Assembly: GCA_964202165.1 (NCBI GenBank)
Contig: CAXNHA010000002.1
Coordinates: forward strand, 1-36,388
DNA length: 36,388 nt
Origin: Candidatus Marinamargulisbacteria bacterium
Lineage (GTDB): Bacteria > Margulisbacteria > Marinamargulisbacteria > SXXA01 > JAHFDB01
Reading direction: 5' to 3'
A program made the position numbers and the translations under genes. Below the pieces are notes generated by a model that made no database searches, was not told the DNA's origin, and saw nothing but the letters and a program-made list of their open reading frames with translations. Below, in pieces: positions 3,004-25,934 of this stretch; within the stretch, counting starts at the first letter, position 1; the number at the start of each line of letters is the position of its first letter.

Positions 3004-3009
3004 ATTACC

Positions 3010-3096: not shown

Positions 3097-3156
3097 AAAA
3101 ACTCCTTAAAAATAATTCAATCGCAGTTTGGAATTTAGCTTAGTTTGTCAATAAAA

Positions 3157-4702: not shown

Positions 4703-5870
4703 GGGAAACCGATTCTACGCTTTGATAGACATGAGGCTCTGTTTTTTCTTCTTGAAATTCATTTGTTTTGATGGGCATCACCACATAAAAATAATCACTG
4801 CCTGTACTAGGTTCAAAAATACAAGGGCTCAATCCATCGTTACAACTTACTTTTACATCATCTGAATCCATATGTTTTAACGCATCTAAAACCAAATGAA
4901 CATTAAACACAACCCTGATCACATCATTACCCATCTGCCTAGATAGCTTTAATTCTTCATAAAAGCTACCCATAGAACTCGCTCTCGATGTCATGATAAC
5001 GGTATCCATACCCACAAGAAGGCTCACCACATTATTGGCCTCTGACGCAACAATAGAGGCTCTCTCACATGCATCAAAAAAGGCCCGTCTCGAAATTAAA
5101 ACAGACTGACTCGGCATCTTGGGAATTACTTTTGTGTAATCTGGAAACTTAGACTCAATGGTCCGAGAAATAAGAACAATACTTCCCATTCTAAAAGAGA
5201 CTTGTTTTTCTGAAACAGAAAGTAAAACATCTTCAGAAAAATCAACAACTTGCAATATTTTTTGAAAATCAGCCAATGTTTTTTGAGGAATAATAACCGT
5301 AAAATCAGGTACAAAACTTTCTGGTTTGAGTTGATACAAGGCCAATCGGTATCCATCTGTGGATACACAGGTAAGTTGTCCTGATTCACTTTTCAAAAAA
5401 ATCCCATTTAAATGGGATTTTTTTTCATCAGAAGAAACACAAAATAACGTGTGTTTAATCATTTCTTTAAGAGAGGCTATGCTAAGTCTAAATTCCAAAC
5501 CGGCATTTATTTTTGGAAAATCTGGATACTCAGCAACATCAATACCCGATACATTAAAATTAACCGTCTCAGCAGAAATATGCACTTCAAATGCATCATT
5601 TTTTGAAAAATCAAGGGTTTTGTTTTGCAACTTACCCAACATACTACTCAATGTTTTTGATTTGATAAGAATAGAACCAGGTTCAGAAGCATTAATTGGG
5701 AGCGTGTATTCTATGGCAATTTCAAGATCATTTCCTCTTAGGAAGAGTGTTTGGTCTTGAATGGAAAGGTACATATTTTCCAATATGGGGATAGGGGTTC
5801 TGGAAGGTATCGCTTTTTCAACAATGGATACAGCTTTTTGTAAATTGCTGCTGCTACATGTGAATTTCAT
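4680..5870 (-). CDS. dnaN: DNA polymerase III beta sliding clamp
   Basis: MKFTCSSSNLQKAVSIVEKAIPSRTPIPILENMYL... is a typical DnaN N-terminus. The gene follows dnaA. SD AGGAGAG lies upstream of the ATG. About 27 aa of acidic tail extend past the usual MPxx C-terminus. Confidence 0.93.
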   Translation of the reverse strand: MKFTCSSSNLQKAVSIVEKAIPSRTPIPILENMYLSIQDQTLFLRGNDLEIAIEYTLPINASEPGSILIKSKTLSSMLGKLQNKTLDFSKNDAFEVHISAETVNFNVSGIDVAEYPDFPKINAGLEFRLSIASLKEMIKHTLFCVSSDEKKSHLNGIFLKSESGQLTCVSTDGYRLALYQLKPESFVPDFTVIIPQKTLADFQKILQVVDFSEDVLLSVSEKQVSFRMGSIVLISRTIESKFPDYTKVIPKMPSQSVLISRRAFFDACERASIVASEANNVVSLLVGMDTVIMTSRASSMGSFYEELKLSRQMGNDVIRVVFNVHLVLDALKHMDSDDVKVSCNDGLSPCIFEPSTGSDYFYVVMPIKTNEFQEEKTEPHVYQSVESVSHAEEIME

Positions 5871-6100
5871 TTTTAAGACTCTCCTTTTTTTAATTCTAAT
5901 AATATGAATTTTCTAATTTAATATATAAATTAGTAGTAGTAATAGCTGTGGAAATGTGGACAAAGCTATTTTTTAATGGATTTTAACACGATTTTTAAAG
6001 GATTACCCTGTGAAAAAATTGGGGTAAACCTGCTACAACTTTTATCAAGTAAAGGGTTTATCCCAAGTCATCCACATACTATGGGTATCTTATCCACAGG
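5871..6100. promoter_or_regulatory. oriC-like dnaA-dnaN intergenic region: AT-rich stretch plus DnaA boxes
   Basis: Scored against TTATCCACA: perfect box at 6090-6098, TcATCCACA at 6068-6076 (8/9). Two overlapping reverse-orientation boxes follow: TGTGGAAAT at 5947-5955 (7/9) and TGTGGACAA at 5955-5963 (8/9). A strongly AT-rich segment lies at about 5890-5945. Confidence 0.6.
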
Positions 6101-7450
6101 TTATGCATCGTTTTTAATATTTGAGATTAGTAGGGTGATAATGCTTCTTGTATCAGAATCAGTTTGCAACATTCCTTTGATTTTATCGCAGGCATGCATA
6201 ACAGTAGAATGATCTCGCTTGCCAAAATTTTCACCAATTTTTGGCAAAGAAACATTGGTCAATTCTCTTGCCAAATACATGGCTATTTGACGAGAAAATG
6301 CTATTTCTCTTGTTCGTTCCTTTGAACAAAGTTCGGAATTGGAAATGTTAAAATAGTCACATACTTTTCGTTTAATATAATTAATAGAAATGGGTTTTTC
6401 TTGCTTAATCCCAATCAAATCACGAATGACGTTGCTTGCAATAGAGAGGGTTACTTCTGTTTTAAGAAGGGAGGCATACGCTACGATTCGCGTCAGAGCC
6501 CCTTCCATTTCACGGACATTTGATGGGATTTGTGTCGCAATAAAATGGAGGATTTCATCAGAAACAGTGAGGTGATTGATCTCAATTTTTTTTCTCAAAA
6601 TAGCAATTCTTGTTTCCAATTCAGGGGGTTGAATATCAGCAATTAATCCCCATTCAAAACGGGTTCTTAGACGAAGTTCTAGCGTGGGAATTTCTTTTGG
6701 GGGTCTATCTGAGGAAATTACGATTTGTTTGTTGTTGCTATGTAAATCATTAAAGGTATGAAAAAACTCTTCTTGCGTTTGTTCTTTGCCAGCAAGAAAT
6801 TGAATATCATCCACCAACAAGACATCAAGTGTCCTATATTTTGCTCTAAAAGACTCTACTTTTTTATCTTTGATGGCATTGATTAGGTCGTTTGTAAATT
6901 TTTCAGAAGAGACAAGCTGGATTTTGGATTTTTTATTTTTTCTGGATATTTCCATACCAATAGCATGGAGGAGATGTGTTTTGCCAAGTCCAACAGATCC
7001 ATAGATAAATAAGGGGTTGTACGCCTTTGCAGGTGCTTTGGAAACAGCTTCTGATGCGGCATGGGCAAATCGGTTGTTGTGACCCACAATAAAATTATCA
7101 AACGTATACCGCTGGTTAAATCCATTGGGGGTTTCATAGGGCTCAACAGGGTTTTGAATGTCTGACAGACTCATTTGATACGTAGAAGGGGACGACTCTA
7201 TTGATTCGGAAACGGTATATAAGAAGATAATATCTTGGTAAGCGGTTTTGTTGAGCGATTGTTTTAAAATAGGCTCACACTTCTCTTTAATCCATTCTCT
7301 AGAAAACATATTGGGGACCTCGATGGTCAAAACGAGGCTTTCAAATCCAACGGGCTTTGCGCAAGATAAAAACGTTTGAAATCCAGGTCCAGATAGTTTT
7401 TCTTTTAAAGAACTTAATACAATTTCCCATAATATCATCATGTTATACAC
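6101..7450 (-). CDS. dnaA: chromosomal replication initiator DnaA
   Basis: Walker A GSVGLGKTHLLHAIG, Walker B LLVDDIQF, and C-terminal DNA-binding signature IAFSRQIAMYLARELTNVSLPKIGENFGKRDHSTVMHA. The track start is GTG at 7450; ATG at 7441 or 7438 (MMILWEIV...) are equally plausible. Confidence 0.97.
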   Translation of the reverse strand: MYNMMILWEIVLSSLKEKLSGPGFQTFLSCAKPVGFESLVLTIEVPNMFSREWIKEKCEPILKQSLNKTAYQDIIFLYTVSESIESSPSTYQMSLSDIQNPVEPYETPNGFNQRYTFDNFIVGHNNRFAHAASEAVSKAPAKAYNPLFIYGSVGLGKTHLLHAIGMEISRKNKKSKIQLVSSEKFTNDLINAIKDKKVESFRAKYRTLDVLLVDDIQFLAGKEQTQEEFFHTFNDLHSNNKQIVISSDRPPKEIPTLELRLRTRFEWGLIADIQPPELETRIAILRKKIEINHLTVSDEILHFIATQIPSNVREMEGALTRIVAYASLLKTEVTLSIASNVIRDLIGIKQEKPISINYIKRKVCDYFNISNSELCSKERTREIAFSRQIAMYLARELTNVSLPKIGENFGKRDHSTVMHACDKIKGMLQTDSDTRSIITLLISNIKNDA

Positions 7451-7528
7451 AACTTATCCATAGTTTTTTTTTATATTTTTGTACCTAAATTTAAAATAGT
7501 ACACAAGTTACACACATGTTTATCCACA
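7443..7528. promoter_or_regulatory. DnaA-box cluster upstream of dnaA (autoregulatory and/or second oriC module)
   Basis: TTATACACA at 7443-7451 (8/9, overlapping the dnaA start), TTATCCATA at 7454-7462 (8/9), TTACACACA at 7508-7516 (7/9), and perfect TTATCCACA at 7520-7528. The surroundings are AT-rich. Confidence 0.6.
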
Positions 7529-7581
7529 GCTTTTTAATCAATGGGGAAAAGAGGTAAAATCTAAAAAATCACCATAGCATT

Positions 7582-8472
7582 TTAGAGTATTTTTTCCAAA
7601 TATTTTGTAAAAATATAATAGAGTTTAAGCCTAGGAGAGATTTGGTTTTGGATAATTCCATTTAATTGGACCAAGACAAATTGTTGGATAGCGGGTTGAT
7701 TTAAGGTGGTTTTTAAGAATTTTTTTGTATGGGATTGGGTGATAGATTGGACAATTGGAAAATCTCCTTCGAGAAGTTGAACATATAGATGGAGTTTTTC
7801 AATCAAGTGGATAAAATCGTAGGTAGGAGATTCAAAAAAAGAAACAACATGAAGGGTATGCCCAGATGCATTTTTGACCGATAAATCTTCTGGTAAAAAT
7901 TGAGCGATGTATAAAAATAAGGCGTTGATTTGTTCGGATGGAAGCGATGAAATCAAGATAAATAAGTCATGAATGGGCAATGATTTTTCTGAGAAAAAAT
8001 TCAAGGTAAGTATTCTTTTTTCAAAAGAAGAGAGAATATGGGTGAGGGTTTGCGTATAAGTGGATAAGCAGATAATCCCTTTTTCTAAACACAAAAAAGA
8101 AGGCTCTGTCCAGTTTTCTTTGAGAATTTTTTTGGATATTCCTTTAAAAAATAAGAGAAAATCATCCCCATTCTCTCCCCATATAAACGTATCCTTAACC
8201 CTATTTTTCCAGACAATCACGACTTTGGACTCGATAAAAGAAATTTTTTGGATGTCAGGGATCAAAATCCCTTTGTGAAAAGACAGGAGAAGAAGACAGA
8301 GTAGTTGAAATAAAAACAAGGTATCTGGATGGTAAAGATCGGCTTTTATATCCCGTTTTTGATCCAAAAAAACGTCTAAATGCCCTATTTTTTCTGCAAT
8401 ACCTTGGAGCATCAATAGAGAGGGAGGGTGATGAAGTTTTACCATTATGTTGTGGCTAGGTGAGAGACTCAA
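7582..8472 (-). CDS. hypothetical protein (296 aa, no recognised motif)
   Basis: Long ORF co-directional with and overlapping the upstream aminotransferase gene by 17 nt. TTG start; an alternative ATG lies at 8445. Confidence 0.55.
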   Translation of the reverse strand: MSLSPSHNIMVKLHHPPSLLMLQGIAEKIGHLDVFLDQKRDIKADLYHPDTLFLFQLLCLLLLSFHKGILIPDIQKISFIESKVVIVWKNRVKDTFIWGENGDDFLLFFKGISKKILKENWTEPSFLCLEKGIICLSTYTQTLTHILSSFEKRILTLNFFSEKSLPIHDLFILISSLPSEQINALFLYIAQFLPEDLSVKNASGHTLHVVSFFESPTYDFIHLIEKLHLYVQLLEGDFPIVQSITQSHTKKFLKTTLNQPAIQQFVLVQLNGIIQNQISPRLKLYYIFTKYLEKIL

Positions 8473-9646
8473 TCCATTGTTTCATGCGAGAAAGTCCCGT
8501 ATGAATATCAGGTAAAGAGGTTGCATAAGACAGTCGGATAAACCCTTCTGCACCAAATCCAGACCCAGGGATACAGGCAACCAGAGCTTCTTTTAAAAGA
8601 AATTGGCAAAAATCTGCATCAGTTTTGATCACCCCACTCTTACAAGACTTGCCCATAAGGGAAGCGATAGTGGGAAATGTATAAAAAGCACCATCTGGAT
8701 TGAGACAATGCACCCCAGGTATGTGATTGAGAAGAGCGACCATCTCATTTTTTCGCTTTTCAAATGCCAGCCGCATAGTGGCAATACTGGCATCGCCTTT
8801 TATCAAGGCATCCACACCTGCCCATTGAGAGGGGGTGTTGGCGTTGGAGGTGCAGTGGCTCTGAATCGTTCCCATGGCGGTGGCTATTGTAAGAGGGGAT
8901 GCACTATAGCCGATACGCCATCCCGTCATAGCATATGCCTTGGATAATCCATTGACCAAAATGGTGAGGTCTTGAAGCTGAGGGTCCAAAGACGCAATGC
9001 TTATATGGGCCACATTGCCATACACCAGTTTTTCATAAATCTCATCAGATAACACCAGCAGGCGATGCGCCAAGATAACCTCTGCCAAGGCAACAAGTTC
9101 GGACTTGGTATAAACAGATCCGGTGGGATTAGAAGGAGAATTTAAAATCAATAATTTTGTTTTAGGCGTGATAGCAGCTTTTAATTGAGGAGCCGTGATT
9201 TTGAATGCAGTAGACTCAGATGTGGGAATAAAGACGGGGATACCACCACATAGATGGACTTGATCGGGATAACTCACCCAATACGGAGAGGGGATAAGGA
9301 CTTCGTCCCCGGGATCGATTAAGGCCATCATAGCATTAAAAATACTGTGTTTTGCCCCGCAAGAAATCACAATTTGAGAGGGCGTGTACACAAGGTTTTG
9401 GTCTTGTTTTAGAGAGGAGGCAACGGCTTCTTTTAATTCTAAAATACCAGTGGCAGCTGTATAACGTGTTTTTCCAGATCGGATTGCCTTGATACCAGAC
9501 TCTTGAATAAATTCAGGTGTATCAAAATCAGGCTCACCTGCGCCAAAATTGATGACATCAAGACCTTCTTTTTTGAGTTTTTGGGCATATGCGGTAATGG
9601 CCATGGTTATACTGTCGCCAACAGATGAAGCACGTTTTGCAATCAT
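8456..9646 (-). CDS. class I PLP-dependent aminotransferase (aspartate/prephenate aminotransferase type)
   Basis: Carries the PLP-lysine motif NGLSKAYAMTGWRIGY, NSPSNPTG, and a GAGEPDF N-terminal motif. The length of ~396 aa is typical. Confidence 0.9.
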   Translation of the reverse strand: MIAKRASSVGDSITMAITAYAQKLKKEGLDVINFGAGEPDFDTPEFIQESGIKAIRSGKTRYTAATGILELKEAVASSLKQDQNLVYTPSQIVISCGAKHSIFNAMMALIDPGDEVLIPSPYWVSYPDQVHLCGGIPVFIPTSESTAFKITAPQLKAAITPKTKLLILNSPSNPTGSVYTKSELVALAEVILAHRLLVLSDEIYEKLVYGNVAHISIASLDPQLQDLTILVNGLSKAYAMTGWRIGYSASPLTIATAMGTIQSHCTSNANTPSQWAGVDALIKGDASIATMRLAFEKRKNEMVALLNHIPGVHCLNPDGAFYTFPTIASLMGKSCKSGVIKTDADFCQFLLKEALVACIPGSGFGAEGFIRLSYATSLPDIHTGLSRMKQWIESLT

Positions 9647-9671: not shown

Positions 9672-10082
9672 TTACTTTTCAGAATAAGAACTTTTTGAAA
9701 TCAATACCAACCCCATCATAATTAGCACCACAGAAAGATATCTGTAAATACTCACAGATTCTTTTAACAAAAATTGAGACCCAATGATAACCAGTGCGTA
9801 ATTAATGCTTAGAAAAGGGTAAAGAAAAGACAGCTCAAATTTTGACAATGCCACCATCCACAAACAACCCCCCATGAGAATCAAGGCGATGCCAATCAAA
9901 ACATGTGGATGGGTTGCCATGAGTATAAATTGAGAAGCATGTGTTTTGTAAGATGAAGAAAACGCTTGTGTAGCAACAGAAATAGGGAGTGTGTTGATGG
10001 TCAATTTTAAAACAAATTCTCCCAATGTTGTCAGAAGAACAGGGACCAAAATAAACAAAAAAATCCGCTTTAGTTTTGTCAT
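9672..10082 (-). CDS. small 4-TM EamA/SMR-like membrane protein (ArnE/ArnF-like half transporter), second of a pair
   Basis: Four hydrophobic segments. ATG at 10082 forms an ATGA overlap with the stop of the upstream paralog; the track ORF extends to 10109. Half-size DMT-like proteins occurring as a pair resemble ArnE/ArnF-type flippases. Confidence 0.6.
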   Translation of the reverse strand: MTKLKRIFLFILVPVLLTTLGEFVLKLTINTLPISVATQAFSSSYKTHASQFILMATHPHVLIGIALILMGGCLWMVALSKFELSFLYPFLSINYALVIIGSQFLLKESVSIYRYLSVVLIMMGLVLISKSSYSEK

Positions 10083-13623: not shown

Positions 13624-14199
13624 TCAAAGTAGAAAACGGGGCTTTTTTAACCACATCAGAAACGCATCTGTAAGAGCCTGGGCAAAGAGAGCTTTATCGT
13701 AGGGTTTCCCCGTTTGCTGATACAATGATGTGGCCACATGAGACAGAAGATCTGAAAAATGGTCGTGGTTGAGATTGATACCCACCCCCACCACAACATA
13801 CCGAGGATATATGGAGTGCCCTTCCACAGCTGTTTCGAGCAAAATACCTGCCACTTTTTTACCATCGATCATGACATCATTGGGAGGCTTGAGTGTGGGA
13901 TGCACACCGGAAAGGGTCTGGATCACATGGATGACAGATTGAGCTGCGGATGTCACCACAGCGGGGATGTCTTCCAACGTAAAAGAAGGTTTTATTAACA
14001 ACGAATAGTACAGCCCATCTTCTGAGTCAGAATGCCAGATGTGATCACCTTGGCCTCGACCGGCAGTTTGGGTATCAGCCACAATCACCAATCCCGTCTT
14101 GAGTTGATCCTCAGTGAGGGTGGAGGCCAAGCGTTTGGCCTCGTTGTTGGTGGAGTCGAGAGAGGGGTATGTATAGATTTTGGGGTTAATATTTGCCAT
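13624..14199 (-). CDS. birA: biotin--protein ligase, catalytic domain only (191 aa, no HTH and no C-terminal cap domain)
   Basis: GRGQGDHIWHS (compare GRGRxGRxW), LKPPNDVMIDGKKVAGILLE (compare KWPND...KLAGILVE), and VGVGINLN. It overlaps the 3' end of the carboxylase gene by 14 nt on the same strand. Confidence 0.75.
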   Translation of the reverse strand: MANINPKIYTYPSLDSTNNEAKRLASTLTEDQLKTGLVIVADTQTAGRGQGDHIWHSDSEDGLYYSLLIKPSFTLEDIPAVVTSAAQSVIHVIQTLSGVHPTLKPPNDVMIDGKKVAGILLETAVEGHSIYPRYVVVGVGINLNHDHFSDLLSHVATSLYQQTGKPYDKALFAQALTDAFLMWLKKPRFLL

Positions 14200-17100
14200 G
14201 CTTTTCGATCAGCATTTCTGCAACCCGGTCAGATTCATCATGGGAATATCCATTTGGGAATAATTTTTTAAATTCTTCTTCGGTCACAATCGCAAATGCA
14301 GACTCTCCATCCAAAAATCGTGCCACATTACATTGTTCCATTGTCAATTCTGTGGCTTTACCCTGTTTGATCAGCTCCATAACTTTTGACAATCCCTTTC
14401 TTAAGGGAATAAGGACGCCTTGGGTGTGCCCTGTCGGAAACTGCGATTGGAACAACGCGTCGGTGCTTTCTTTTTTTGAGACCTCTCGTGTCAAGACCAT
14501 ATTGCCTATTGTGACCACTTGGCCAAATTCTACCCCACCCAAAAGTCTCTTGATATATCCCGCTCCACCGACGCCACTTGTTGCAAACAATGTGTTTCTG
14601 ATCTCCGGTATTCGCTTTGCAAATGTAATTGGGATGACATAAGGCTCTCCATCCACCAAAAAATGAGCTAATTTTTGATTGGTCATTTTATTGATTTTAG
14701 GTTCTATGTGCTGAAGTTCAACCTCCATGGATTTTCCGTTTGGTAACTGGATGCGATATTTTTTGCCAGGCACCATATTGCCCATAGCCAACTCATGGGT
14801 TAACAGCGTTTCTCCATACTTTTGCATATGTTCAAGCAATGCTGCCAAGTTATCATCTGGCAACATTGCACCTGCTATCAACGTTAATGAATCAAGGCTG
14901 TTAATGACGCCCCAGGAGATTCCTTTTTCATTATGAAGACGTTGTTTGAAGGCTTCTAGATTAAATGGCCTTTCGTGAGGTGCTGTTAGTCCATATGCCT
15001 CCATTACATCCTTCCTATAGGAAGGAAACCCCAGTGGATTGGGCTCTCCCATTTCTCCTGCAATAAAATCACGAACCGTCTTGTCTAAGTTAAGATCTCT
15101 GATTGCTTTCTGATTGCCACTGTTCAATGTGTCCAAATACTCTTTTGCAATCTGGTCTAACAACAAGACACGGGTTAATTCTTTTTTTAATGCATTTGTA
15201 TCGCGATCAGGAGCCCACAAAATAGCTTTGTAGCCATTTTCTTGTGCGGAAGGATCTATAGTAGAAACAGATTTTGTTTCAAAAACCAATCTATCTGCTT
15301 CTTTTTGGATATTGAGATAGGTGTCGCTTTTTAAGAATGTTTCGTCCTTGAGTGACACATCTAGTCTACGAAGTAAATCCAGTCCCAGATTGGCTGTAGC
15401 TTGAGATGTTGGGGTAACCAATGTAAGACGGTGGTAGGGATTTTTAAAATCAGGTGTATCTGCCAAAATTTTGTCAGCAAATGCATAGGCCCACCCCGCT
15501 ACACGGCCATCAGAAATAGAGGTTAAGGGCAGGCCATTGTTGACAATTTGAGAGGCAAAGCTTGGTGCTTGGCCACCGGGTATGCGAAAAAATCGAGCTC
15601 CCAACGGGCCTAAAAAGGCTTCGCATTGGGATGGGGATACCTTCATATCATTGTAGTAGGAATGTAAGTTGTCATAAAACTTTGTTACGGTCTGAATATG
15701 CTCATCGACAACTTCTTGAGGAAGATGCTTGCCAGATGCTTTAATCTCTTTAATCAAGTCTTGTATAGAAACTTGCCCAAAGCTTTTACCCATATTGGTA
15801 AAAGCAGCATCCATGAGATCTGCTCCAGAATTTGCTTGCACCCTGGCGGCATCTCCTTTTGGATTGTGCATGTGCGTGTGTACCAATCCTTTAAATCCAC
15901 AGTCTTCCTTGATGATTCTCACCAATTCTTTCATATCAGAGACATTGGCTTGGCCAACCATATCTTTGATATCAATGATAAATTCATCTTGGTCCAACCC
16001 CTGTTCTTTGGCCAAAGCGATGATATTGTGGACCAGTTTTCTGTAGTAGGCTGCGTTGTAGACGGTGTCTCCACCTGTAAGGGCTCCCGTGTATACCACA
16101 GAAAACATAGGCATCACGACACCCTGAAAGCCTTCATTTTTTAATTCTTTGATCGCTTGGCAATACGCCTTGATGCTTTTGGATAAGCCTACCTGGGCAT
16201 CTTTATCCACAGAATTGCAGGCGTCAAAAATACGGGGCATTGTACATCCGGATTTGATCGACTCTTTAAACAGAAGTACCAGCGACTCCATGGGTTGCGC
16301 ATAATAGCTAATGCCAGTTGAGCGAAATAACCAGCTTGAGATGGTATCAGACAAGGTGTGTAGATCTTTCATCACCCGACCATGGTCTTCTTGTTTAAAG
16401 AGTAGGTCTGCAGCAGCCCGTGCACCGCCACCACCCTCCATCATAAAAAATGGAAATAGTTTTCGAATAGGATCTAAAACATCTCGCGTATCAACGCTAC
16501 GGTCTCTATTGGCAAGATCGGACTGAAAATGATCTCTTTGATTGGTGTATACAGGAATTACCAGGTTGTTTTCTTGTATCCATTTTGTAAAGCCTTTTGG
16601 ACCCAACTCTTGCAATTTATCTTTAATGCCACTTTGTTTTTCTATGCCCTTCTTGATCATGGATAATAATCCACGTAATTCCTCTATAGGATAAGGGCTA
16701 TTTTCTGCATTGGGATTGATCTTTTGTTGGGAAGCCTTGACCCCTCCTGCAAGATCTGACACAGCCTGAAGAGCCCCGTTTTGTTGTTGGATCGCCTCCT
16801 GTTTTTTTTGAATCTTAGCGGGGGCCGTCTCGTACAAATAGGGATCGCGTTGTGCTTGATCTGTGGGCACAACTTTGTCTTGACCAATCTGCTCAGCTGC
16901 ATTCCATAGAGGCGTCAGATTTAAGCTTGGGCCTGAGATCTGCACGTTAATCAAAAAGCGTTTTGTTTTTTCTGCCCATAATGTTTTGGCTAATTTGAGA
17001 TAGCCCTTTTCTCCAATCTCATCTGAAGAATACCTGTCCAACACCTCTTGCTTGGTGATGCTAATTTCCACTCTCATGATATTGCTATCCCCACTCACAG

Positions 17101-18730
17101 GGATGCCTTGTCCTGTACCAATACAATTGCCAGGAACGTAGACGCCTGGCATATCTGGAATAATCACCTGCTCAAAGATATTGTTCCCTGTGGTGGTGGT
17201 TGGCATAAAACGCCCATTTTTTTTGGTAAATGCACCCTCCATGTTGACACGAAGCTGGCCATTAAAAAGAACATGCTTATCTGAATTTTTTCGATCCAAG
17301 TCAATTTGCTTATGAATAGGCTCAAGCTCGTACAATGTGCCCCCATTGGCAACATGGCATAGAATAGCTGTAATAGAACACCCGGATGCGTCTTCGGAAA
17401 CAGGATGTTCTACTTGAACACGCGTGTTGACCTCTAATGCAATAAATTTTTGTTGATCACGGTCATACAAAAACTCAATGGTAGCAGCTCCTGCGTAGCC
17501 AATACTGTGCAACATGTTTTGCAATTTTGGTTGATAGCTGTCTAATATCTTTTGTCCTTCAACATCATCAAATAGCGTCTCCAGGTATTTTTTGCTGTCT
17601 CCTGCCTGAAAACTACAATTGCGAGGGGGTAAAAATATTGCTTGCCCATCTTTGTCCATAACAACCTGCATTTCAACGTGTTCAAAATTGCCAGATAAAT
17701 TGGCTTCTACAATCAAATCAGAATTGCCAAATTGGGTTTTTCCTTCTGACTTTGCAGCACTTATGAGGCTTTCAACGGAAGCCATTGCGTTCTTCTGAGT
17801 CTCTCCAGAACCATACAAGGCATCATGAATTATTTCTTTTGGGATGACCCGTTGTCCACCACCTCCGCCACCATCGATGGCTTTTACCCGCAGGTCTTGG
17901 TTGTTTAAATCAGATTGATTCTTTGCAACCCATAAAAATCCAAAGATATCCGAATCAAACCCCTCCTGCGTGTTTAACAAAGGGCTAGACTCTTTCATCC
18001 CAATTTCTCGCAAGGTCTTTTGGGTGCCTGGAATAACAGGTAGGTCAAATGTTGCAAATAATTTTTTGGAGGCATCTTTTGGGCCTACTTGTGCCATTGC
18101 ATTGGAATTTGGCCCAAGAAAAATTAATCGGTTTGCGTATTCTTTAGATAAGTCCTCGAGTTTTTGGACAAAATCAGATTTTTCAGACAAAAACCCATAC
18201 CCAGGATAAACAGAAATCGCTTTGCCGGGGTTCTCTTTTAAAAGCTGTTCTATGTTGGCCAAAATAGAGTCTTGATCGGTATAGCTTTTGATTGGCATGG
18301 TGGTATGTGCATAGTCTCCATGACCCGTTTTTGCTTGCTCATCGCTTGGATCTTGCATGGCTACCAAGCGGGCGCTTCCTCCCGTTAGGGCAGACATTTT
18401 TTGAAAAAAATCTGTGGCACATCCTCCTCGGTGCAGACAAACAATAATGTCTGTATGCTCGATTTTATTGATATAAGGATCCACGTGTTGAGGTGAAAAT
18501 TCTATGCGATTGATGCCTGTTTTATTATTATTATTTGGGATAGAAAGTTCTTGATTTCGAGTAAGTTGTCGTTGTAGAGAGCTAAAATTTTGAGAAGATA
18601 GCCCCATCGGAAAGAGATTAATTTTATTTGACGTCTGTTGCTTTAATTGTTTGGAAAGATATTTCCAAAACATTCCTTTAAGAAGTGGGCGTCTGGTAAC
18701 TTGAGACAATAATCCACTGAATTGCTGCAT
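14186..18730 (-). CDS. giant divergent biotin-dependent carboxylase with pyruvate-carboxylase architecture (biotin carboxylase + carboxyltransferase TIM barrel + BCCP-like domain), ~1514 aa
   Basis: - **BC:** KAIDGGGGGGQRV and EVNTRVQVEHPVSE.
- **CT:** NQRDHFQS, MEGGGGARAAADLLF, IKDMVG, HTHMHN, IPGGQ and VTPTSQ.
- **BCCP-like:** VVTIGNMVLTREVSKKES.
- **Start:** the ORF extends to 18784, but ATG at 18730 is preceded by AAGGGAGG with a 9-nt spacer, so it is preferred. Confidence 0.8.
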   Translation of the reverse strand: MQQFSGLLSQVTRRPLLKGMFWKYLSKQLKQQTSNKINLFPMGLSSQNFSSLQRQLTRNQELSIPNNNNKTGINRIEFSPQHVDPYINKIEHTDIIVCLHRGGCATDFFQKMSALTGGSARLVAMQDPSDEQAKTGHGDYAHTTMPIKSYTDQDSILANIEQLLKENPGKAISVYPGYGFLSEKSDFVQKLEDLSKEYANRLIFLGPNSNAMAQVGPKDASKKLFATFDLPVIPGTQKTLREIGMKESSPLLNTQEGFDSDIFGFLWVAKNQSDLNNQDLRVKAIDGGGGGGQRVIPKEIIHDALYGSGETQKNAMASVESLISAAKSEGKTQFGNSDLIVEANLSGNFEHVEMQVVMDKDGQAIFLPPRNCSFQAGDSKKYLETLFDDVEGQKILDSYQPKLQNMLHSIGYAGAATIEFLYDRDQQKFIALEVNTRVQVEHPVSEDASGCSITAILCHVANGGTLYELEPIHKQIDLDRKNSDKHVLFNGQLRVNMEGAFTKKNGRFMPTTTTGNNIFEQVIIPDMPGVYVPGNCIGTGQGIPVSGDSNIMRVEISITKQEVLDRYSSDEIGEKGYLKLAKTLWAEKTKRFLINVQISGPSLNLTPLWNAAEQIGQDKVVPTDQAQRDPYLYETAPAKIQKKQEAIQQQNGALQAVSDLAGGVKASQQKINPNAENSPYPIEELRGLLSMIKKGIEKQSGIKDKLQELGPKGFTKWIQENNLVIPVYTNQRDHFQSDLANRDRSVDTRDVLDPIRKLFPFFMMEGGGGARAAADLLFKQEDHGRVMKDLHTLSDTISSWLFRSTGISYYAQPMESLVLLFKESIKSGCTMPRIFDACNSVDKDAQVGLSKSIKAYCQAIKELKNEGFQGVVMPMFSVVYTGALTGGDTVYNAAYYRKLVHNIIALAKEQGLDQDEFIIDIKDMVGQANVSDMKELVRIIKEDCGFKGLVHTHMHNPKGDAARVQANSGADLMDAAFTNMGKSFGQVSIQDLIKEIKASGKHLPQEVVDEHIQTVTKFYDNLHSYYNDMKVSPSQCEAFLGPLGARFFRIPGGQAPSFASQIVNNGLPLTSISDGRVAGWAYAFADKILADTPDFKNPYHRLTLVTPTSQATANLGLDLLRRLDVSLKDETFLKSDTYLNIQKEADRLVFETKSVSTIDPSAQENGYKAILWAPDRDTNALKKELTRVLLLDQIAKEYLDTLNSGNQKAIRDLNLDKTVRDFIAGEMGEPNPLGFPSYRKDVMEAYGLTAPHERPFNLEAFKQRLHNEKGISWGVINSLDSLTLIAGAMLPDDNLAALLEHMQKYGETLLTHELAMGNMVPGKKYRIQLPNGKSMEVELQHIEPKINKMTNQKLAHFLVDGEPYVIPITFAKRIPEIRNTLFATSGVGGAGYIKRLLGGVEFGQVVTIGNMVLTREVSKKESTDALFQSQFPTGHTQGVLIPLRKGLSKVMELIKQGKATELTMEQCNVARFLDGESAFAIVTEEEFKKLFPNGYSHDESDRVAEMLIEKHGKY

Positions 18731-18860
18731 AGCAATTGACCTCCCTTTTTTGAATGTTGAGTAGCTTGCTATAGTTCTGTACAAGATAAACGAACATTGC
18801 GTATAGTGTTTTTTTTGAGAAGCTGGAAAATATATAGGCTGAAAGGGGGATGGTCAACCA

Positions 18861-19427
18861 ATGATATCCAAAACACAGGTGTCACTAGCAGGGAGTGTTC
18901 TGTTCTTGCATCCTAAGATCGACTCTACCAATCTTGAGGCTGAACGTTTTTTGCATACAGCGGATGAAGGAGCTTTGCATGAGGGGGCTGTGTTTATTGC
19001 CAAAATCCAAACCAATGGACAGGGTAGTTTTTATCGAAAATGGGTCTCTGATCTGGGAGGCTTGTATTACAGCTTGTTGATGCCCTGTTCGGAAGCAGTG
19101 GCCCAAACCAATGCGCTTCCCCAGATTGCAACCTGTGTTAGAGATGTGCTTTTTGAATTCACACACCTACCTGTCGAAGTAGATCATCCCAATGACCTTG
19201 TTGTGGGGGACAAAAAAATAGGCGGTATTTTATTAAAAACGCTACCAAAACAAATGCAACACTTTATCATTATCGGCATCGGTATTAATCTAAACCAGAG
19301 CTCTTTTTCTGATGAGATTCACATGCGAGCAACCTCTGTCTTTCAGCTTACAAAAAAACGCATCAGCCAAAAAGCTATTGCCACCCCTCTCACGCTAGCC
19401 CTAAAAAAATGCTTGGTATCGCTTTAA
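18861..19427 (+). CDS. biotin-protein-ligase-like paralog with degenerate catalytic motifs (188 aa)
   Basis: Has the same fold pattern as the 13624-14199 product (LGGLYYSLL, DKKIGGILLK, IGIGINLN). However, the biotin loop reads TNGQGSFYRKW and the KWPND position reads DHPND. It is divergent from the carboxylase gene. Confidence 0.65.
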   Translation: MISKTQVSLAGSVLFLHPKIDSTNLEAERFLHTADEGALHEGAVFIAKIQTNGQGSFYRKWVSDLGGLYYSLLMPCSEAVAQTNALPQIATCVRDVLFEFTHLPVEVDHPNDLVVGDKKIGGILLKTLPKQMQHFIIIGIGINLNQSSFSDEIHMRATSVFQLTKKRISQKAIATPLTLALKKCLVSL

Positions 19428-19441
19428 AAGTGCCCCCAACA
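19404..19441 (+). repeat. direct repeat copy 1 (38 bp), covering the 3' end of birA-2
   Basis: AAAAAATGCTTGGTATCGCTTTAAAAGTGCCCCCAACA recurs at 20723-20760 with a single mismatch. Confidence 0.9.
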
Positions 19442-19448
19442 TTATTGG

Positions 19449-20615
19449 CTAAATGCCTCTAAAAAGAGCAGCGATCGGGATGAGATGAACCGTGTCTATG
19501 ATGTCGTAGGTTTCACCAGTATAAAATAGAATTAAACGGATTGCTCGGTCCGAATGCACCTGAGAAAATGCCACTAGAGATCGAATGTCTTTGCGGCTTG
19601 GTTTCTTCGTGCTTTTTATTTCAATGGCATACAGGACATAGTCATCTGTTTCAAAAATCAGGTCAATTTCTCTACCTGAAACGCTTTTGTAATAATAGAA
19701 TTGCGCACTTTTTATCAATCCTAATTTTCTTCTTTTTTCCAATTCAGCAATCACAAAATTTTCTAATAGCTGGCCTTCTTGTAAGGGAATGTTCAGGCTA
19801 TGGATGATGCCATTGTCTGCAAAGTATGTTTTTGCCGCTTTAATGTATCGTTTTGCAGGACCGTATTGGTAGCCGTAAAGTTTAAAAACAAGCTGGGATT
19901 GAGTTAAAATAGCGAGATACTTCTGAGCAGTCGGGTAACTTAATCCTGATTCTCTGGCAAAATTGGATGTTTCCAGAGGAGAGCCTATGGATCGAGCGAT
20001 ATGGTGAAAAATACCAAGCAATCCCTGCTGGTGCTCGATGTGGGCCAACTGCATAATATCTCGGATAAAATAGGTGTTCTTATAATTGGCCAAAAGGGTT
20101 TGTTTAAGCGGTGGGGTTGGTTGCAAAATAACTTCAGGAAATTGTCCATAGGTGATAGCTGTCTGCAACTGCCGTTGCGCTTCTTTAATGATCGGGGGCG
20201 TTTGTTTGTCGGTGAAAATAGTGTGAGTGGGTTTGCCTAGTTCTTCTCCCCAGCATACTGTTGGAAATTGATAGAGGGATATTCGCCCTGCCAATGTATC
20301 AGCCGCACTGTCTAATAGCCCAATTGAGCTTGACCCTGTCATAAAAAAGAGGGCATCACTGCTATCGATGGCATACTTAACGGCTATCGTTAGACGGGGT
20401 TCTCTTTGGATTTCATCAATGATGACCTGTTTTCCTAGGCTGTTAATAAATCCTTTTGGATCGTTTTTTGCCCATTCCAGGTAATCCAAGTCATCTAGCG
20501 TGACGTAATTAAAACTGGGAAAAGCTGTTTTTAAGTACGTGGTTTTTCCAGATCGCCTGGGGCCTATTATGAGGCAACTTTTAGCGGGATCTATGGTGAG
20601 CCATCTTGAGAACAT
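19449..20615 (-). CDS. AAA-family ATPase with winged-helix and C-terminal PD-(D/E)xK nuclease-like domain (AAA_14 + DUF4143 architecture)
   Basis: Walker A GPRRSGKTT, Walker B VIIDEIQ, a putative wHTH LSYPTAQKYLAILTQSQLV, and the C-terminal REIDLIF...YAIEIKSTKK (D...ExK). Confidence 0.8.
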   Translation of the reverse strand: MFSRWLTIDPAKSCLIIGPRRSGKTTYLKTAFPSFNYVTLDDLDYLEWAKNDPKGFINSLGKQVIIDEIQREPRLTIAVKYAIDSSDALFFMTGSSSIGLLDSAADTLAGRISLYQFPTVCWGEELGKPTHTIFTDKQTPPIIKEAQRQLQTAITYGQFPEVILQPTPPLKQTLLANYKNTYFIRDIMQLAHIEHQQGLLGIFHHIARSIGSPLETSNFARESGLSYPTAQKYLAILTQSQLVFKLYGYQYGPAKRYIKAAKTYFADNGIIHSLNIPLQEGQLLENFVIAELEKRRKLGLIKSAQFYYYKSVSGREIDLIFETDDYVLYAIEIKSTKKPSRKDIRSLVAFSQVHSDRAIRLILFYTGETYDIIDTVHLIPIAALFRGI

Positions 20616-20621
20616 TATCGT

Positions 20622-20664
20622 ACTCTAACATGGATATTTATAAAGTCAATTTTATAAATATCCA
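20622..20664 (-). promoter_or_regulatory. putative promoter/operator of the ATPase gene: 14-bp perfect inverted repeat centred on a TTGACT -35 element, with a TAGAGT -10 element
   Basis: Arms at 20631-20644 (TGGATATTTATAAA) and 20651-20664 (TTTATAAATATCCA) with a 6-nt spacer GTCAAT. On the minus strand it reads TTGACT, 16 nt, TAGAGT, 6 nt, ATG. This implies a leaderless or nearly leaderless mRNA. Confidence 0.3.
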
Positions 20665-20674
20665 GCACATTTAT

Positions 20675-20746
20675 AAAACCAATACGCTTCCTCAGATTGC
20701 GACTCCCCTAACAATCGCCTTGAAAAAATGCTTGGTATCGCTTTAA
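20675..20746 (+). pseudogene. collapsed remnant of a birA-2 copy
   Basis: Translates as KTNTLPQIATPLTIALKKCLVSL*. This is birA-2 ...QTNALPQIAT fused to IATPLTLALKKCLVSL*. At the DNA level, 20676-20703 matches 19105-19132 (3 mismatches), and 20695-20760 matches 19376-19441. Confidence 0.8.
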
Positions 20747-22090
20747 AAGTGCCCCTAACAACTCTTGATGCTGGGGCTCTTTGTGGATAGACAGAAGCTC
20801 TTGGATACGGGTGATACGCTCGTCAATAGATACAAAGTCGCCGGCGTTTTTTAAGAGTGTGCCGGTCTCATATCGAGGAATCATATAGCGGCTCAGATGC
20901 TCTTGTGTGGGATGGGGGTGCCAGTTGAGATAGGCGCGGTTGAATAATTGCATCAGATAAAAATCTTTTTTGTGTCGACCATTCTGCTTGTATTGGTCCA
21001 ACAACGTCCGAATCGTGCGTGCGTAACTATCGGGCTGCTGGATCAATGTCTGAACACAATGCCCTAAAATCGGAATACGCTCAAATCCCAGTTCATACAA
21101 TTGATAGTCAATGTCCCAGTCTTTTTTAATTTTTTCATAATACAGTTCAGGGGTTAGCGTTGCGATAAACCCATGCCCAGAGGCTTTTTCGTACACAGGT
21201 GTCCAATAGGATGTTTCTTCAGCAGAAAGGGCTTCAGAGATAAAAAAATGCTTGTTTGGGTTGATACGATGCAAGCAAGAAAGGCAATCGATTTCTGTAG
21301 CTTCCTCTGGTAGGTGTTGCCATTTATCCAAATCCAGCAGCAACAAGGCCTGTTTATCTTCCCATAGTTTTGCCCAATAGCGAGGTGTTTTGTGATCAGG
21401 AACCGCCTCACTTTGCGAATATCCAATCTCCCATTGTTTGAGCATAAAAAATGGTTTTTTAGGATACTGAATGGGTATAAATTTGGAAAAAGATACCCCA
21501 AATTTTTGTTCAAATGCCCGTATCAAATCCACCATGAGATGGACATCTTCTTCCGCCGAGTGGGTCTGAGGTGCCGTCAATACACCCATCGATTTGGCCA
21601 AGGTTTCGAGCTTGAAAACGTAATACGGATTGCCCAATGCATTAACTCCCAACTCCCATGGGAATGACTCAGAGTGGATGAGGGCCAGCCATTTTGCAAC
21701 ATGTAAGACGTCTCGATTTTGCAATTTGCCCATAAAATAGGGGTTGTACCCATATCGAATCAGCAAGCTTCTTAAAAATTCCAAATCAAATCGATTGCTA
21801 TTAAATCCCACCAACGTGCATGTCCCGTATTGTTGGATGCACCGATTCAAAAAATCAAAAATAGTCTTGGCAGCCTCATATTCAGGGATCCCTTTGTGCG
21901 CAAGCTCCTCTATATGGATTTGATTGACCCAAATGGCATCTGGATCGGGGAGTTGTATGCGGTTGAGCTGAATGTAGCCTGTGCAGGTATCCAGACAGGT
22001 GTAGGAAGTGTCTAGACAGAAAAACGCATAGGAGAGTATCTGCCCTAACAGATCCCTCGAAGAGGTTTCAAAATCATAAAACAGGTACAT
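20708..22090 (-). CDS. sbcB: exodeoxyribonuclease I-like DEDDh 3'-5' exonuclease
   Basis: LFYDFETS (ExoI motif), GFNSNRFDLEFLR (ExoII), and HSAEEDVHLMVDL (ExoIII H-x4-D). The length of 460 aa is similar to E. coli ExoI. Confidence 0.78.
   Translation of the reverse strand: MYLFYDFETSSRDLLGQILSYAFFCLDTSYTCLDTCTGYIQLNRIQLPDPDAIWVNQIHIEELAHKGIPEYEAAKTIFDFLNRCIQQYGTCTLVGFNSNRFDLEFLRSLLIRYGYNPYFMGKLQNRDVLHVAKWLALIHSESFPWELGVNALGNPYYVFKLETLAKSMGVLTAPQTHSAEEDVHLMVDLIRAFEQKFGVSFSKFIPIQYPKKPFFMLKQWEIGYSQSEAVPDHKTPRYWAKLWEDKQALLLLDLDKWQHLPEEATEIDCLSCLHRINPNKHFFISEALSAEETSYWTPVYEKASGHGFIATLTPELYYEKIKKDWDIDYQLYELGFERIPILGHCVQTLIQQPDSYARTIRTLLDQYKQNGRHKKDFYLMQLFNRAYLNWHPHPTQEHLSRYMIPRYETGTLLKNAGDFVSIDERITRIQELLSIHKEPQHQELLGALLKRYQAFFQGDC
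20723..20760 (+). repeat. direct repeat copy 2 (38 bp), covering the 3' end of the exonuclease gene
   Basis: 37/38 identical to 19404-19441. Confidence 0.9.
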
Positions 22091-24068: not shown

Positions 24069-25934
24069 ATGGAGCGTGTTATGATCGACAATCATAAAGC
24101 CATGAACCATTCTTCTGACCTTATTCATACCTTCCATATCCCTGTTATGGGGACGGCTTTTACGATTGATTCACCTGTCAAAGTAGCTCGTTTTGGTATC
24201 ACATCCGTTGTCTCTATTGGAGACGATGAATTATGCGAGTACACGCGAGAACACTATACACAATCCCTGAGGGAGTCTTTTGAGCCCATTACCAAAAAAG
24301 ATCACGATTACCGGGCAAAACGCATTACCGCCTATTTGAATCTGATTAATCGTATTGTTGAGCAACAAATGGTCACCATGGCGCAGCTTCCTTTTGGTTT
24401 AAACAATGATCTTGCAAAATACTTCGAGCTGTTACCGGAAAATTCTGAGATCAAAAAAACCTATATCAAGATGATATCTTTGCCAGAAGGATCCGAAAAA
24501 CAAATGCATCAAGCCTATTTGAAAACCTGTATTAGGCCAGGCTCCATTGATGTGAATATCATGACCAAAATCGACCGGGACACCTATGATCAAAACGGAG
24601 AGTTGCTGCCTGAGCATTTTTCAGATGCCTTAGCTGCTCTAAGAGGGTATGCACTGAGTACATTGTCTTCGGCCGTTGAGTTTTCTGCCGGGTTCAATCG
24701 TCGCCTGTATGCTTATATCGAACAGTTTGATGATTTTTTTCCAGATGCCACAGGGTTTATCAAAAAACAAATCGTGATCAAAGTGTCTGATGTAAGATCA
24801 TCGCTCATTCAAGGAAAGTTTTTGGCTAAAAAAGGGCTTTGGATTTCTGAGCATCGCATTGAATCAGGCTTGAATTGTGGCGGACATGTTTTTCCAACAG
24901 AAGGCCATCTCATGGGGCCTATCTTAGAAGAATTTAAACAAAAAAAAGATACGATCGCATCCACATTTTACGACATGGTAAACGACGCCTTGCTAAAAAA
25001 GGGAAGATTTACTTTTTTACAAACTCCTCCCATGCGTATCACCGTACAAGGTGGGGTTGGTACAGCCAATGAACACCAGTTTTTGCAAAAAGAGTATGAG
25101 GTAGATTCGGTTGGTTGGGGCACTCCTTTTTTATTGGTTCCAGAAGCCACCAATGTAGATGAAAAAACCCGTACGTTATTGGCAACCTCTCCGAGGGAAA
25201 ACTTTTATACCAGTGGGATTTCTCCTCTAGGCGTGCGATTTAATACAGTTAGAGGAACAGATAGCGAAGAGCTTAAGCTAAGACGAGTAGAGGAAGGAAA
25301 GCCGGGTAGTCCCTGCCCAAAAGGACATTTGGTTAACAATACTGAGTTTACAAAAAAACCGATTTGCACAGCATCCACCACCTATCAAAAACGAAAGATA
25401 GAACAATTAAAATCTCTGCAACTATCTCCTGATATCTTGCAAAAAGCTTTTCAAAAAATTATTGACAAAGCCTGTTTATGTGAAGATCTAGCCGCTTCAG
25501 CCTTGATCAACCACCATCAAATCAACAAACGAATCCTAGCACCTGCTATTTGCCCGGGACCCAATATGGGTTATTTTGACCGTACAATGACTTTGTCAGA
25601 GTTGGTTGCCCATATTTATGGGCGTCTGCACGTGATGACGCATGCCAATCGGCCCAATTTGTTTGTATCAGAACTGAGGTTGTATATCGAACACCTTGTT
25701 TTTGAGATCAAGGAGTCGCTACCAAAACCAACTTCCAAACAAATTGGCTATTTTCAGTCCTTCCAGAAAAATCTGATGGAAGGCATTCAGTATTACAAGC
25801 AATTGATCCCAAAATTTACCCTCGAAACCCAAAAGTATCGAGATGCAATGAAAGACGAGCTTCAAGCCATTCGCAATGAGCTAGAGGCTTTAGGGCATGC
25901 ATATCCGCACATCTTTGAGAATGCATTGTCATGA
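24069..25934 (+). CDS. conserved-looking protein of unknown function (621 aa), possibly a TIM-barrel (nitronate-monooxygenase-like GGH motif) with a Cys-rich C-terminal half
   Basis: Long ORF, with an ATGA overlap to the downstream ABC ATPase gene. Motifs seen are HIPVMGTAFTIDSPVKVARFGITSV, ESGLNCGGHVF, VQGGVGTANE, and the Cys set CPKGH...C...CLC...CPGP. No family was identified with confidence. Confidence 0.7.
   Translation: MERVMIDNHKAMNHSSDLIHTFHIPVMGTAFTIDSPVKVARFGITSVVSIGDDELCEYTREHYTQSLRESFEPITKKDHDYRAKRITAYLNLINRIVEQQMVTMAQLPFGLNNDLAKYFELLPENSEIKKTYIKMISLPEGSEKQMHQAYLKTCIRPGSIDVNIMTKIDRDTYDQNGELLPEHFSDALAALRGYALSTLSSAVEFSAGFNRRLYAYIEQFDDFFPDATGFIKKQIVIKVSDVRSSLIQGKFLAKKGLWISEHRIESGLNCGGHVFPTEGHLMGPILEEFKQKKDTIASTFYDMVNDALLKKGRFTFLQTPPMRITVQGGVGTANEHQFLQKEYEVDSVGWGTPFLLVPEATNVDEKTRTLLATSPRENFYTSGISPLGVRFNTVRGTDSEELKLRRVEEGKPGSPCPKGHLVNNTEFTKKPICTASTTYQKRKIEQLKSLQLSPDILQKAFQKIIDKACLCEDLAASALINHHQINKRILAPAICPGPNMGYFDRTMTLSELVAHIYGRLHVMTHANRPNLFVSELRLYIEHLVFEIKESLPKPTSKQIGYFQSFQKNLMEGIQYYKQLIPKFTLETQKYRDAMKDELQAIRNELEALGHAYPHIFENALS

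Follow-up and report, generated by a model that had tools for sequence, protein, structure and literature searches.

Why does a gene for a combined ATPase and nuclease stand by itself between a core exonuclease gene and birA, and how did it get there? The question arises from a stretch of 36,388 nucleotides of Candidatus Marinamargulisbacteria bacterium (contig CAXNHA010000002.1 of assembly GCA_964202165.1, positions 1 to 36,388 of the forward strand), here called the window, which encodes on its minus strand, at 19449..20615, a protein of 388 residues that we refer to as the ATPase-nuclease. A preliminary description, drawn from the letters of the DNA and a list of its open reading frames (ORFs), had proposed a mobile defence or addiction-type element that arrived as a solitary cassette. 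We observe a discrete mobile unit and a target duplication, and we think it rather probable that the gene is a self-contained cassette of foreign origin, belongs to the PDC-S01 family of nuclease-ATPases and came in through insertion with long target duplication. The mobile, solitary nature of the cassette was borne out in this way. The idea is not a new one, as the gene is a further member of a candidate defence family that is already catalogued in PADLOC as PDC-S01.

The locus as it now stands is made up of four parts, given here in the order of their coordinates.

19377..19441, no strand assigned: target duplication copy 1, the 3' end of functional birA (plus strand; the stop codon ends at 19427)
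19442..20675, minus strand: inserted cassette of 1234 nt (about 1.23-1.25 kb), with operator/promoter, coding sequence (CDS) and 7 nt, bounded by the repeats
20676..20703, plus strand: birA remnant, codons ~83-91, fused to copy 2 at a repeated IAT (ATTGCnAC) motif
20696..20760, no strand assigned: target duplication copy 2, the 3' end of the exonuclease gene (minus strand; stop codon 20708-20710), whose plus strand still reads as a BirA C-terminus

The two copies of this 65-nt direct repeat, spaced 1319 nt apart, are 85% identical and share an exact core of 33 nt. When the repeat was collapsed, the exonuclease gene and birA were again convergent with an overlap of 39 nt, and the exonuclease orthologs in relatives likewise end in convergent overlaps of 23-47 nt with whatever gene follows. 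The cassette would have entered at this overlap, and the long target duplication provides each flanking gene with an intact 3' end of its own. The 28-nt block that adjoins copy 2 is 89% identical to an internal part of birA (19105-19132), and the composite 20676-20760 reads in the birA frame as TNTLPQIATPLTIALKKCLVSL followed by a stop codon, with codons ~83-91 joined at the IAT motif directly to codons 173-188. From this fusion it follows that the duplication originally spanned at least 337 nt and later lost 252 nt in frame. Among the 12 differences between the repeat copies in the birA frame, nine fall on third codon positions and none on second positions (binomial P 0.004), which argues that birA sequence was still being coded by copy 2 as it diverged. 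The simplest account of this pattern is a later transfer of the occupied locus among related lineages via homologous recombination of its flanks.

Is the window an isolated case? For comparison we fetched homologous loci, which are numbered with the prefix L. Pairs of these loci with otherwise unrelated flanks delimit the unit that moves. L036 and L037 share only 1273 nt (95.6% identity, from -69 to +43 about the gene), L032 and L033 share only 1234 nt (87% identity, -50 to +24), and in L017 and L018, which also have different flanks, the shared part runs from -40 to +4 (88% identity). The window insert of 1234 nt is in line with the units shared by the first two pairs. In an all-against-all BLAST of the upstream flanks beyond -45 and the downstream flanks of 30 loci, nothing was conserved between unrelated loci beyond about -65 and past the stop codon, sharing being confined to related genomes, and neither terminal inverted repeats nor an att-like core were seen in these flanks.

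Flanking repeats of at least 30 nt were then counted for ORFs of at least 200 amino acids in all fetched loci. They surround 8 of 73 family genes and 1 of 203 other genes (odds ratio 25, Fisher P 1.3e-4), leaving 65 of the 73 family genes without one. The clearest cases are L008 (108 nt, 97%), L021 (149 nt, 93%), L072 (about 170 nt, 93%, taking in the 5' end of the downstream gene) and the second paralog of L046 (47 nt, 96%, including a terminator), while L019, L031 and L055 are weaker. For L008 the empty site could be identified: L097, with a Fer4 protein 92% identical to that of L008, and L099 (Desulfovulcanus sp.) have the gene order of L008 without the ATPase, and in both of them the 102-108 nt found on either side of the 1391-nt insert of L008 occur only once.

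Several side observations concern the edges of the cassettes. The sole ORF outside the family with a flanking repeat (L064:1690-2682, minus strand) encodes an ArdC-like anti-restriction/metallopeptidase protein, typically a mobile-element gene. L046 carries two AAA_14/DUF4143 genes side by side (L046:3001-4161 and L046:4250-5368), the second inserted just past the terminator of the first, and the two adjacent proteins are 22% identical. The 149-nt duplication of L021 (1-150 and 1476-1625) begins at a contig end, and many homologs lie on contigs of 1.3-1.5 kb. Metagenome assemblies may be breaking at the cassettes through repeats of this kind or through presence/absence polymorphism. Low-complexity runs of the CTGnC/GACTC type flank genes similar to bAvd/23S-rRNA-IVP and are found at some cassette edges (L010:7850-7912, 9238-9280 and 9702-9979; L008:7190-7280).

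The same loci bear on another explanation, in which PDC-S01 (AAA_14-DUF4143) genes are not defence genes at all, but autonomous one-gene mobile elements and thus a new class of transposable element. A winged helix in the protein would read a palindrome upstream of the gene as the element end, the nuclease would nick the strands of donor and target at widely staggered positions, and the long duplication would arise when the gaps are filled in by repair. Long target duplications are indeed strongly enriched in the family, even among members that are 22-30% identical, the unit of 1.23-1.27 kb is discrete with a left edge consistently at -40 to -69, and none of the inserts at the loci examined contains any other mobility gene. 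Against such an element, the ends of the inserts are ragged, lying 30-190 nt before and 7-130 nt after the CDS, a conserved 3' end is missing, the duplications vary from 35 to at least 170 nt, identical proteins were seen in one context only, and the large majority of copies have no flanking repeat. The marks of a classical transposon or insertion sequence, namely terminal inverted repeats, short duplications of fixed length and identical copies at multiple sites, are all missing. Moreover, an identical insertion signature is known for ordinary restriction-modification genes, which are no transposases. We therefore regard autonomous transposition as unlikely. If it were true, it would explain why these genes are found 'embedded' in other systems and between core genes, and a palindrome-controlled leaderless consensus promoter would be an adaptation that lets any bacterial host express the gene as soon as it arrives. 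We also considered and rejected the action of a site-specific integrase in trans, since the repeats vary in sequence and length at every locus.

The pattern matches instead the 'insertion with long target duplication' of restriction-modification genes, which is the route that we favour for the cassette. Furuta, Abe and Kobayashi (PMC2853133) described insertions of this type among restriction-modification genes of Types I to IV, one of them a solitary mcrA, and suggested a connection with double-strand breaks in DNA. The inserts described in that line of work (Nobusato, Furuta and Kobayashi; PMC2853133) likewise encode a nuclease and contain neither integrase nor transposase. As with the cassette, their direct repeats exceed 30 bp, are variable in length, derive from unique target sequence and often cover the 3' end of the neighbouring gene; their empty sites are recognised by comparison, as was that of the homologous cassette in L008. 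Among the criteria of Furuta et al. (2010), repeats of more than 30 bp, an insert of less than 20 kb and an insert free of integrase and transposase are all found at the window. A further criterion, a repeat in single copy at the empty site of a related genome, is borne out for the homologous cassette of L008 against L097 and L099, whereas the nearest relatives of the window share no more than 49% exonuclease identity and no synteny. The presence of both restriction and modification homologs is not, because the insert has no methyltransferase and holds a solitary nuclease-ATPase gene, for which the solitary Type IV mcrA is the nearest precedent. Two further differences are that PDC-S01 is not a recognised restriction enzyme, and that the cassette adds a conserved, predicted-leaderless promoter with an operator. 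A linked antidote gene (antitoxin or methylase), as in toxin-antitoxin or addiction modules, is also missing from the insert, which contains a single ORF; self-protection, if any, would thus have to be intrinsic. Rfam searches returned nothing near the gene.

From where did the cassette come? The closest homologs of the ATPase-nuclease are 61-67% identical and all about 386 amino acids long, and those with a named source belong to Calditrichales, Caldithrix, Thermodesulfobacteriota and Desulfatitalea, i.e., Calditrichota and Desulfobacterota. The flanking exonuclease gene (20708-22090, minus strand; 460 amino acids, DEDDh/ExoI-like, with no Pfam match at default thresholds) has only 96 homologs, all of the Margulisiibacteriota/Marinamargulisbacteria type and the best of them 49% identical, which marks it as a lineage-specific core gene of a host without a close sequenced relative. 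The cassette is thus closer to genes of other phyla than its neighbour is to its own kin, and on these identities it is of foreign origin and was acquired by horizontal transfer. Together with the 65-nt repeat, the empty site of a homolog and cassettes shared between different flanks, this confirms the insertion scar in housekeeping surroundings that had been noticed at the outset.

It had also been noticed that the exonuclease gene lies directly upstream of the ATPase-nuclease gene on the same strand. The position is correct, and the gap of 92 nt contains no terminator-like site, as one would expect if the two genes were co-transcribed partners in a two-gene nuclease system. However, the exonuclease orthologs in six related loci are followed by unrelated genes and never by such an ATPase, and no such exonuclease was found near any of about 26 loci with close ATPase homologs, so that the adjacency is incidental. 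In addition, the edge of the cassette, as defined by the duplication, falls between the two genes, and the ATPase has a conserved promoter of its own. A two-gene system is therefore highly improbable.

This promoter overlaps the palindromic upstream element that the preliminary description had pointed out, and which proved to be a perfect palindrome of 14+14 nt with a 6-nt centre (arms 20631-20644 and 20651-20664).

20622..20649, minus strand: near-consensus sigma-70 promoter, with TTGACT (20649-20644), a 16-nt spacer and the extended -10 element TG-n-TAGAGT (20627-20622)
20631..20664, no strand assigned: perfect palindrome TGGATATTTATAAA-ATTGAC-TTTATAAATATCCA, which brackets the -35 box; presumed auto-operator

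The half-site does not occur anywhere else in the window. With only 6 nt between promoter and ATG and no Shine-Dalgarno sequence, the mRNA is predicted to be leaderless. Over the 45 nt immediately in front of the start codon, DNA-level conservation extends to about 25 homologous loci, with the form AACTTGACTTTnAAAATATCCATGnTAnAnTnnAAnC-ATG, and the distance from the -10 hexamer to the ATG is a constant 6 nt in the homologous loci of the window's subfamily. The left arm of the palindrome is imperfectly kept in homologs, with a mean of 8.8 of 14 positions complementary versus 5.0 (sd 1.8) in shuffles. Near-consensus promoters that end 5-8 nt before the start codon were found for 30 of 85 family ORFs, but of the 351 other ORFs at these loci only 4 have one. 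In a second subfamily, about 30% identical, the arrangement is TTGACA-16-TAAAAT-7-ATG, and the spacer contains another palindrome, TTTAAAGTAnTACTTTAAA. The DNA element of this subfamily, CTTGACAwTTTAAAGTwnTACTTTAAAATnnnAAnTATG, is a consensus promoter that ends 7 nt short of the ATG and has a 9+9-nt palindrome in its spacer, and it shows the layout of the window subfamily with a different operator sequence; it lies in the ~60 nt upstream of the ATPase gene in L052, L055, L072, L074-L078, L085, L089, L090, L107 and L108. If the encoded winged helix controls its own gene, one would predict just this: the same layout throughout, with an operator that differs from one protein subfamily to the next. 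On the evidence of these alignments the promoter/operator is conserved and travels with the gene, and the ATPase-nuclease is probably autoregulated through its own palindrome.

What, then, does the gene encode? The P-loop NTPase, probable winged helix and restriction-endonuclease-like C-terminus that had been read from short motifs were all recovered by Pfam, AlphaFold2 (AF2) models, Foldseek and invariant residues. The product is an AAA_14 ATPase with a winged helix and a PD-(D/E)xK nuclease whose catalytic residues are intact, and the lack of a nuclease fold or of these residues, which would have refuted the initial reading, was not observed.

19449..20615, minus strand: ATPase-nuclease CDS, 388 amino acids, ATG start; AAA_14 ATPase + winged helix + PD-(D/E)xK nuclease of the PADLOC PDC-S01 / COG1373 / DUF4143 family
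20244..20579, minus strand: AAA_14 P-loop ATPase domain, residues 13-124, from the Pfam match and invariant motif residues
20538-20564, minus strand: Walker A, GPRRSGKTT, inside the AAA_14 domain
20406-20426, minus strand: Walker B, VIIDEIQ, inside the AAA_14 domain
19818..19982, minus strand: winged helix-turn-helix (HTH), residues ~212-266, from AF2 secondary structure; presumed operator reader, with recognition helix 227-239, LSYPTAQKYLAIL
19521..19778, minus strand: PD-(D/E)xK nuclease core, residues 280-365, from AF2 models, Foldseek and invariant residues
19662-19664, 19620-19622 and 19614-19616, minus strand: nuclease catalytic residues D318, E332 and K334, respectively

Pfam identified AAA_14 (residues 13-124, E 4.7e-21) and DUF4143 (185-335, E 6.8e-28), and NCBIfam had no model for the protein. 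The PADLOC model PDLC04790 of PDC-S01 spans it at full length (E 1.9e-76, residues 14-385 versus profile positions 30-418 of 422). Six more PDC-S01 models match as well, and the CARF_PDDEXK model matches the nuclease domain (E 2.5e-5). With the ATPase-nuclease as the only ORF of the insert, the window shows the single-gene AAA_14 + DUF4143 layout of PDC-S01, and the gene is structurally no different from that family, with the same domain order.

Conservation was assessed in an alignment of 27 sequences (the window protein and 26 homologs). Walker A (G18-P-R-R-x-G-K-T-T26), D67-E68 of Walker B, D318 and E332-I-K334 (E332-x-K334) of the nuclease, which lie on predicted strands 2 and 3, and S226, T229, K232, Y233, L234 and L237 of the winged helix are invariant in all 27. 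R111 and T93/S95/S96 are also invariant and are candidate arginine finger/sensor residues, the models being monomeric only. The full-length AF2 model (predicted local distance difference test, pLDDT, 88; predicted template modelling score, pTM, 0.88) consists of the P-loop domain, a helical region, the HTH (H216-223, H227-239), a beta-hairpin wing (243-265) and an alpha-beta-beta-beta-alpha-beta nuclease core (H280-297, E307-310, E316-323, E328-333, H341-353, E359-365).

Foldseek searches of the Protein Data Bank (PDB) with the full-length model returned the CARF-nuclease effectors Cdn1/Card1/Can2, RuvB, ORC/Cdc6, RFC and Apaf-1, with low TM-scores of 0.23-0.35 for RuvB, ORC and RFC. The C-terminal domain modelled alone (pLDDT 90) matched exclusively PD-(D/E)xK nucleases, best of all McrC (6ut7_G, E 3.8e-4, TM 0.55), and further ACE1/Cas4, EndoMS/NucS, Card1/Can2/Cdn1, the R2 endonuclease domain, DdmD and LlaBIII. 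The matches to the R2 retrotransposon endonuclease and to Cas4-like domains are a point in favour of the transposable-element explanation. A PDB sequence search gave only marginal matches to Hjc and ORC4 and no close relative with a solved structure.

Comparison with better-known systems suggests how the protein may work. With McrBC (AAA+ McrB and PD-(D/E)xK McrC) the ATPase-nuclease shares an AAA+-type NTPase coupled to a PD-(D/E)xK nuclease. It is, however, one polypeptide and not two, its AAA_14 domain is not McrB-like by sequence, it has no N-terminal modified-DNA reader, it has a winged helix between ATPase and nuclease, and there is no detectable sequence homology. Card1/Can2/Cdn1 of type III CRISPR (CARF-wHTH-PD-(D/E)xK), the top full-length Foldseek matches, similarly combine a sensor domain, a DNA-binding module and a nuclease in one chain, whereas the N-terminus of the ATPase-nuclease is a P-loop ATPase and not a CARF domain that binds cyclic oligoadenylate, and there is no CRISPR locus nearby. 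AAA+ proteins of the Orc1/Cdc6, RuvB and RFC type have the same succession of ATPase, helical lid and winged helix (Foldseek probability 0.96-1.0; for ORC4 there is also a weak sequence match at Walker A), but they have no nuclease, and the AAA_14 domain is much smaller.

Taken together, these likenesses permit the favoured explanation to be put in steps. The moving unit of about 1.25 kb would consist of the near-consensus sigma-70 promoter, the palindromic operator around the -35 box and the ORF. Transcription would start at or beside the ATG, and the resulting leaderless mRNA would be expressible in almost any bacterium. The winged helix would bind the palindrome and shut the promoter once protein has accumulated, with a burst of expression on arrival and a low steady state thereafter as the outcome. 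The ATPase may assemble on or remodel DNA and in this way license the C-terminal nuclease, as if McrB and McrC were fused in one chain; both ATPase and nuclease activity are expected from the intact motifs. The ATPase-nuclease would probably act as a methylase-less, restriction-like or abortive DNA nuclease that is McrBC-like in logic. By breaking DNA the protein could help its own gene to be captured and retained, an effect that has been proposed for restriction-modification genes, and like these genes the cassette may behave partly as a selfish element. A benefit through defence or selfishness may be supposed, and computation of the kind used here cannot separate defence from addiction or selfish behaviour.

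Several observations weigh against this explanation. GC content, GC content at third codon positions (GC3) and codon usage of the cassette are host-like, without any compositional anomaly, which implies that the insertion is not recent. An empty site for the insertion in the window was not found in a scan of genome contigs with the exonuclease (relatives at 40-42% identity had no synteny, and the best metagenomic orthologs, at 48-49%, had no birA downstream), because the collections contain no close relative of the host. A recognisable modified-DNA reader, as in Type IV restriction enzymes, is missing from the protein, in which Pfam and NCBIfam detect AAA_14 and DUF4143 alone, and the insert has no methylase. 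The literature searched contains no biochemical data on family members. In the only published test, Escherichia coli B was not protected from T7, T5 or T4 by a PDC-S01 representative (bioRxiv 10.1101/2024.09.26.614923), which also speaks against the defence part of the initial proposal. Finally, a classic defence-island context was not supported. The 76 neighbours of close homologs include 5 further PDC-S01 genes, 5 PIN toxins, Cas1, HicB, SoFic, bAvd and some other PDC candidates, with housekeeping genes making up the remainder. The cassettes do tend to pile up, as the 5 family members among these 76 neighbours illustrate, a figure that would also suit autonomous mobile elements.

Some of these points would be expected if the gene were a passively acquired accessory gene with a cellular role, e.g., a DNA-repair or transcription-linked ATPase, which arrived by ordinary illegitimate recombination and serves neither selfish nor defensive ends. 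The duplication would then be seen simply because insertions that destroyed the 3' ends of the exonuclease gene or birA could not survive. The housekeeping surroundings here and at most homolog loci, the negative phage test, the ameliorated composition and the huge size of the family (10,562 representative clusters at 50% identity) fit such a gene. On the other hand, the nuclease and ATPase residues do not vary and identity stays above 60% between phyla, a sign that a function which moves along with the gene is under strong selection, and a portable consensus promoter with operator would be unusual for a host-integrated function. The family was first found embedded in BREX, DISARM and Type I restriction-modification loci, its cassettes co-occur with toxin-antitoxin and other PDC genes, and flanking repeats are 25-fold enriched in comparison with neighbouring genes. 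Passive acquisition is accordingly a distinctly unlikely account of the locus, and insertion of a selfish or defensive nuclease-ATPase cassette with long target duplication is the one that we retain.

How does this agree with what is known about the family? DUF4143/COG1373 is catalogued as a PD-(D/E)xK family without assigned function (PMC3424549), and PDC-S01 is an unvalidated candidate, so that the initial statement that the family lacks an established function holds. PDC-S01 was reported as the fourth most common 'defence system' across prokaryotes, with the status of such a candidate. The PDCs were nominated because members are embedded in defence loci, while the window copy sits among core genes and not in a defence system. 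The AAA_14/DUF4143 gene TT_P0211 of Thermus thermophilus HB27 was up 6.6-fold when plasmid and Argonaute were both present. We found no mention in the searchable literature of the leaderless layout of the conserved promoter/operator, of a discrete unit of about 1.25 kb or of the tie to restriction-modification-style insertion.

Family members are also present in 360 plasmid records, all at 31% identity or less, and no target duplication was present at the four plasmid loci examined. One of them, L104 (Sinorhizobium terangae pCB3126_2, 552407-553660), is situated in the traR/traM quorum-sensing region of a conjugative plasmid, between traR paralogs that are 74% identical; the repeat at this Sinorhizobium locus was rejected as a target duplication, being due to old traR paralogy. 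The family is nearly absent from phages, with 5 hits among 50,697 phage records and 4 distant IMG/VR matches.

Other parts of the window drew attention in their own right. A giant ORF of 1532 amino acids (14186-18784, minus strand) is biotin-carboxylase/HMGL-like, i.e., pyruvate-carboxylase-like, and is flanked by two ligase genes of the BPL_LplA_LipB family (191 amino acids at 13624-14199, and the BirA-like protein of 188 amino acids at 18861-19427). The region ~2500-8500 has a low GC content (0.31-0.37 versus 0.41-0.48 elsewhere) and low-GC3 genes, and may be a separate acquired region. An ORF of 621 amino acids without Pfam family (24069-25934, plus strand) lies directly upstream of an ABC transporter pair and is divergent from rho.

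Few candidate defence genes are as abundant in bacteria and archaea as those of PDC-S01, which are without a demonstrated function. The 'guilt-by-embedding' signal from which they were nominated could in part reflect selfish insertion rather than defence, and counts of 'defence systems' that include PDC-S01 should for this reason be read with care. The analysis of this locus and its relatives gives the family three properties that can be tested: a portable promoter/operator with a predicted leaderless mRNA, a mobile unit of about 1.25 kb, and an insertion route in common with restriction-modification genes.

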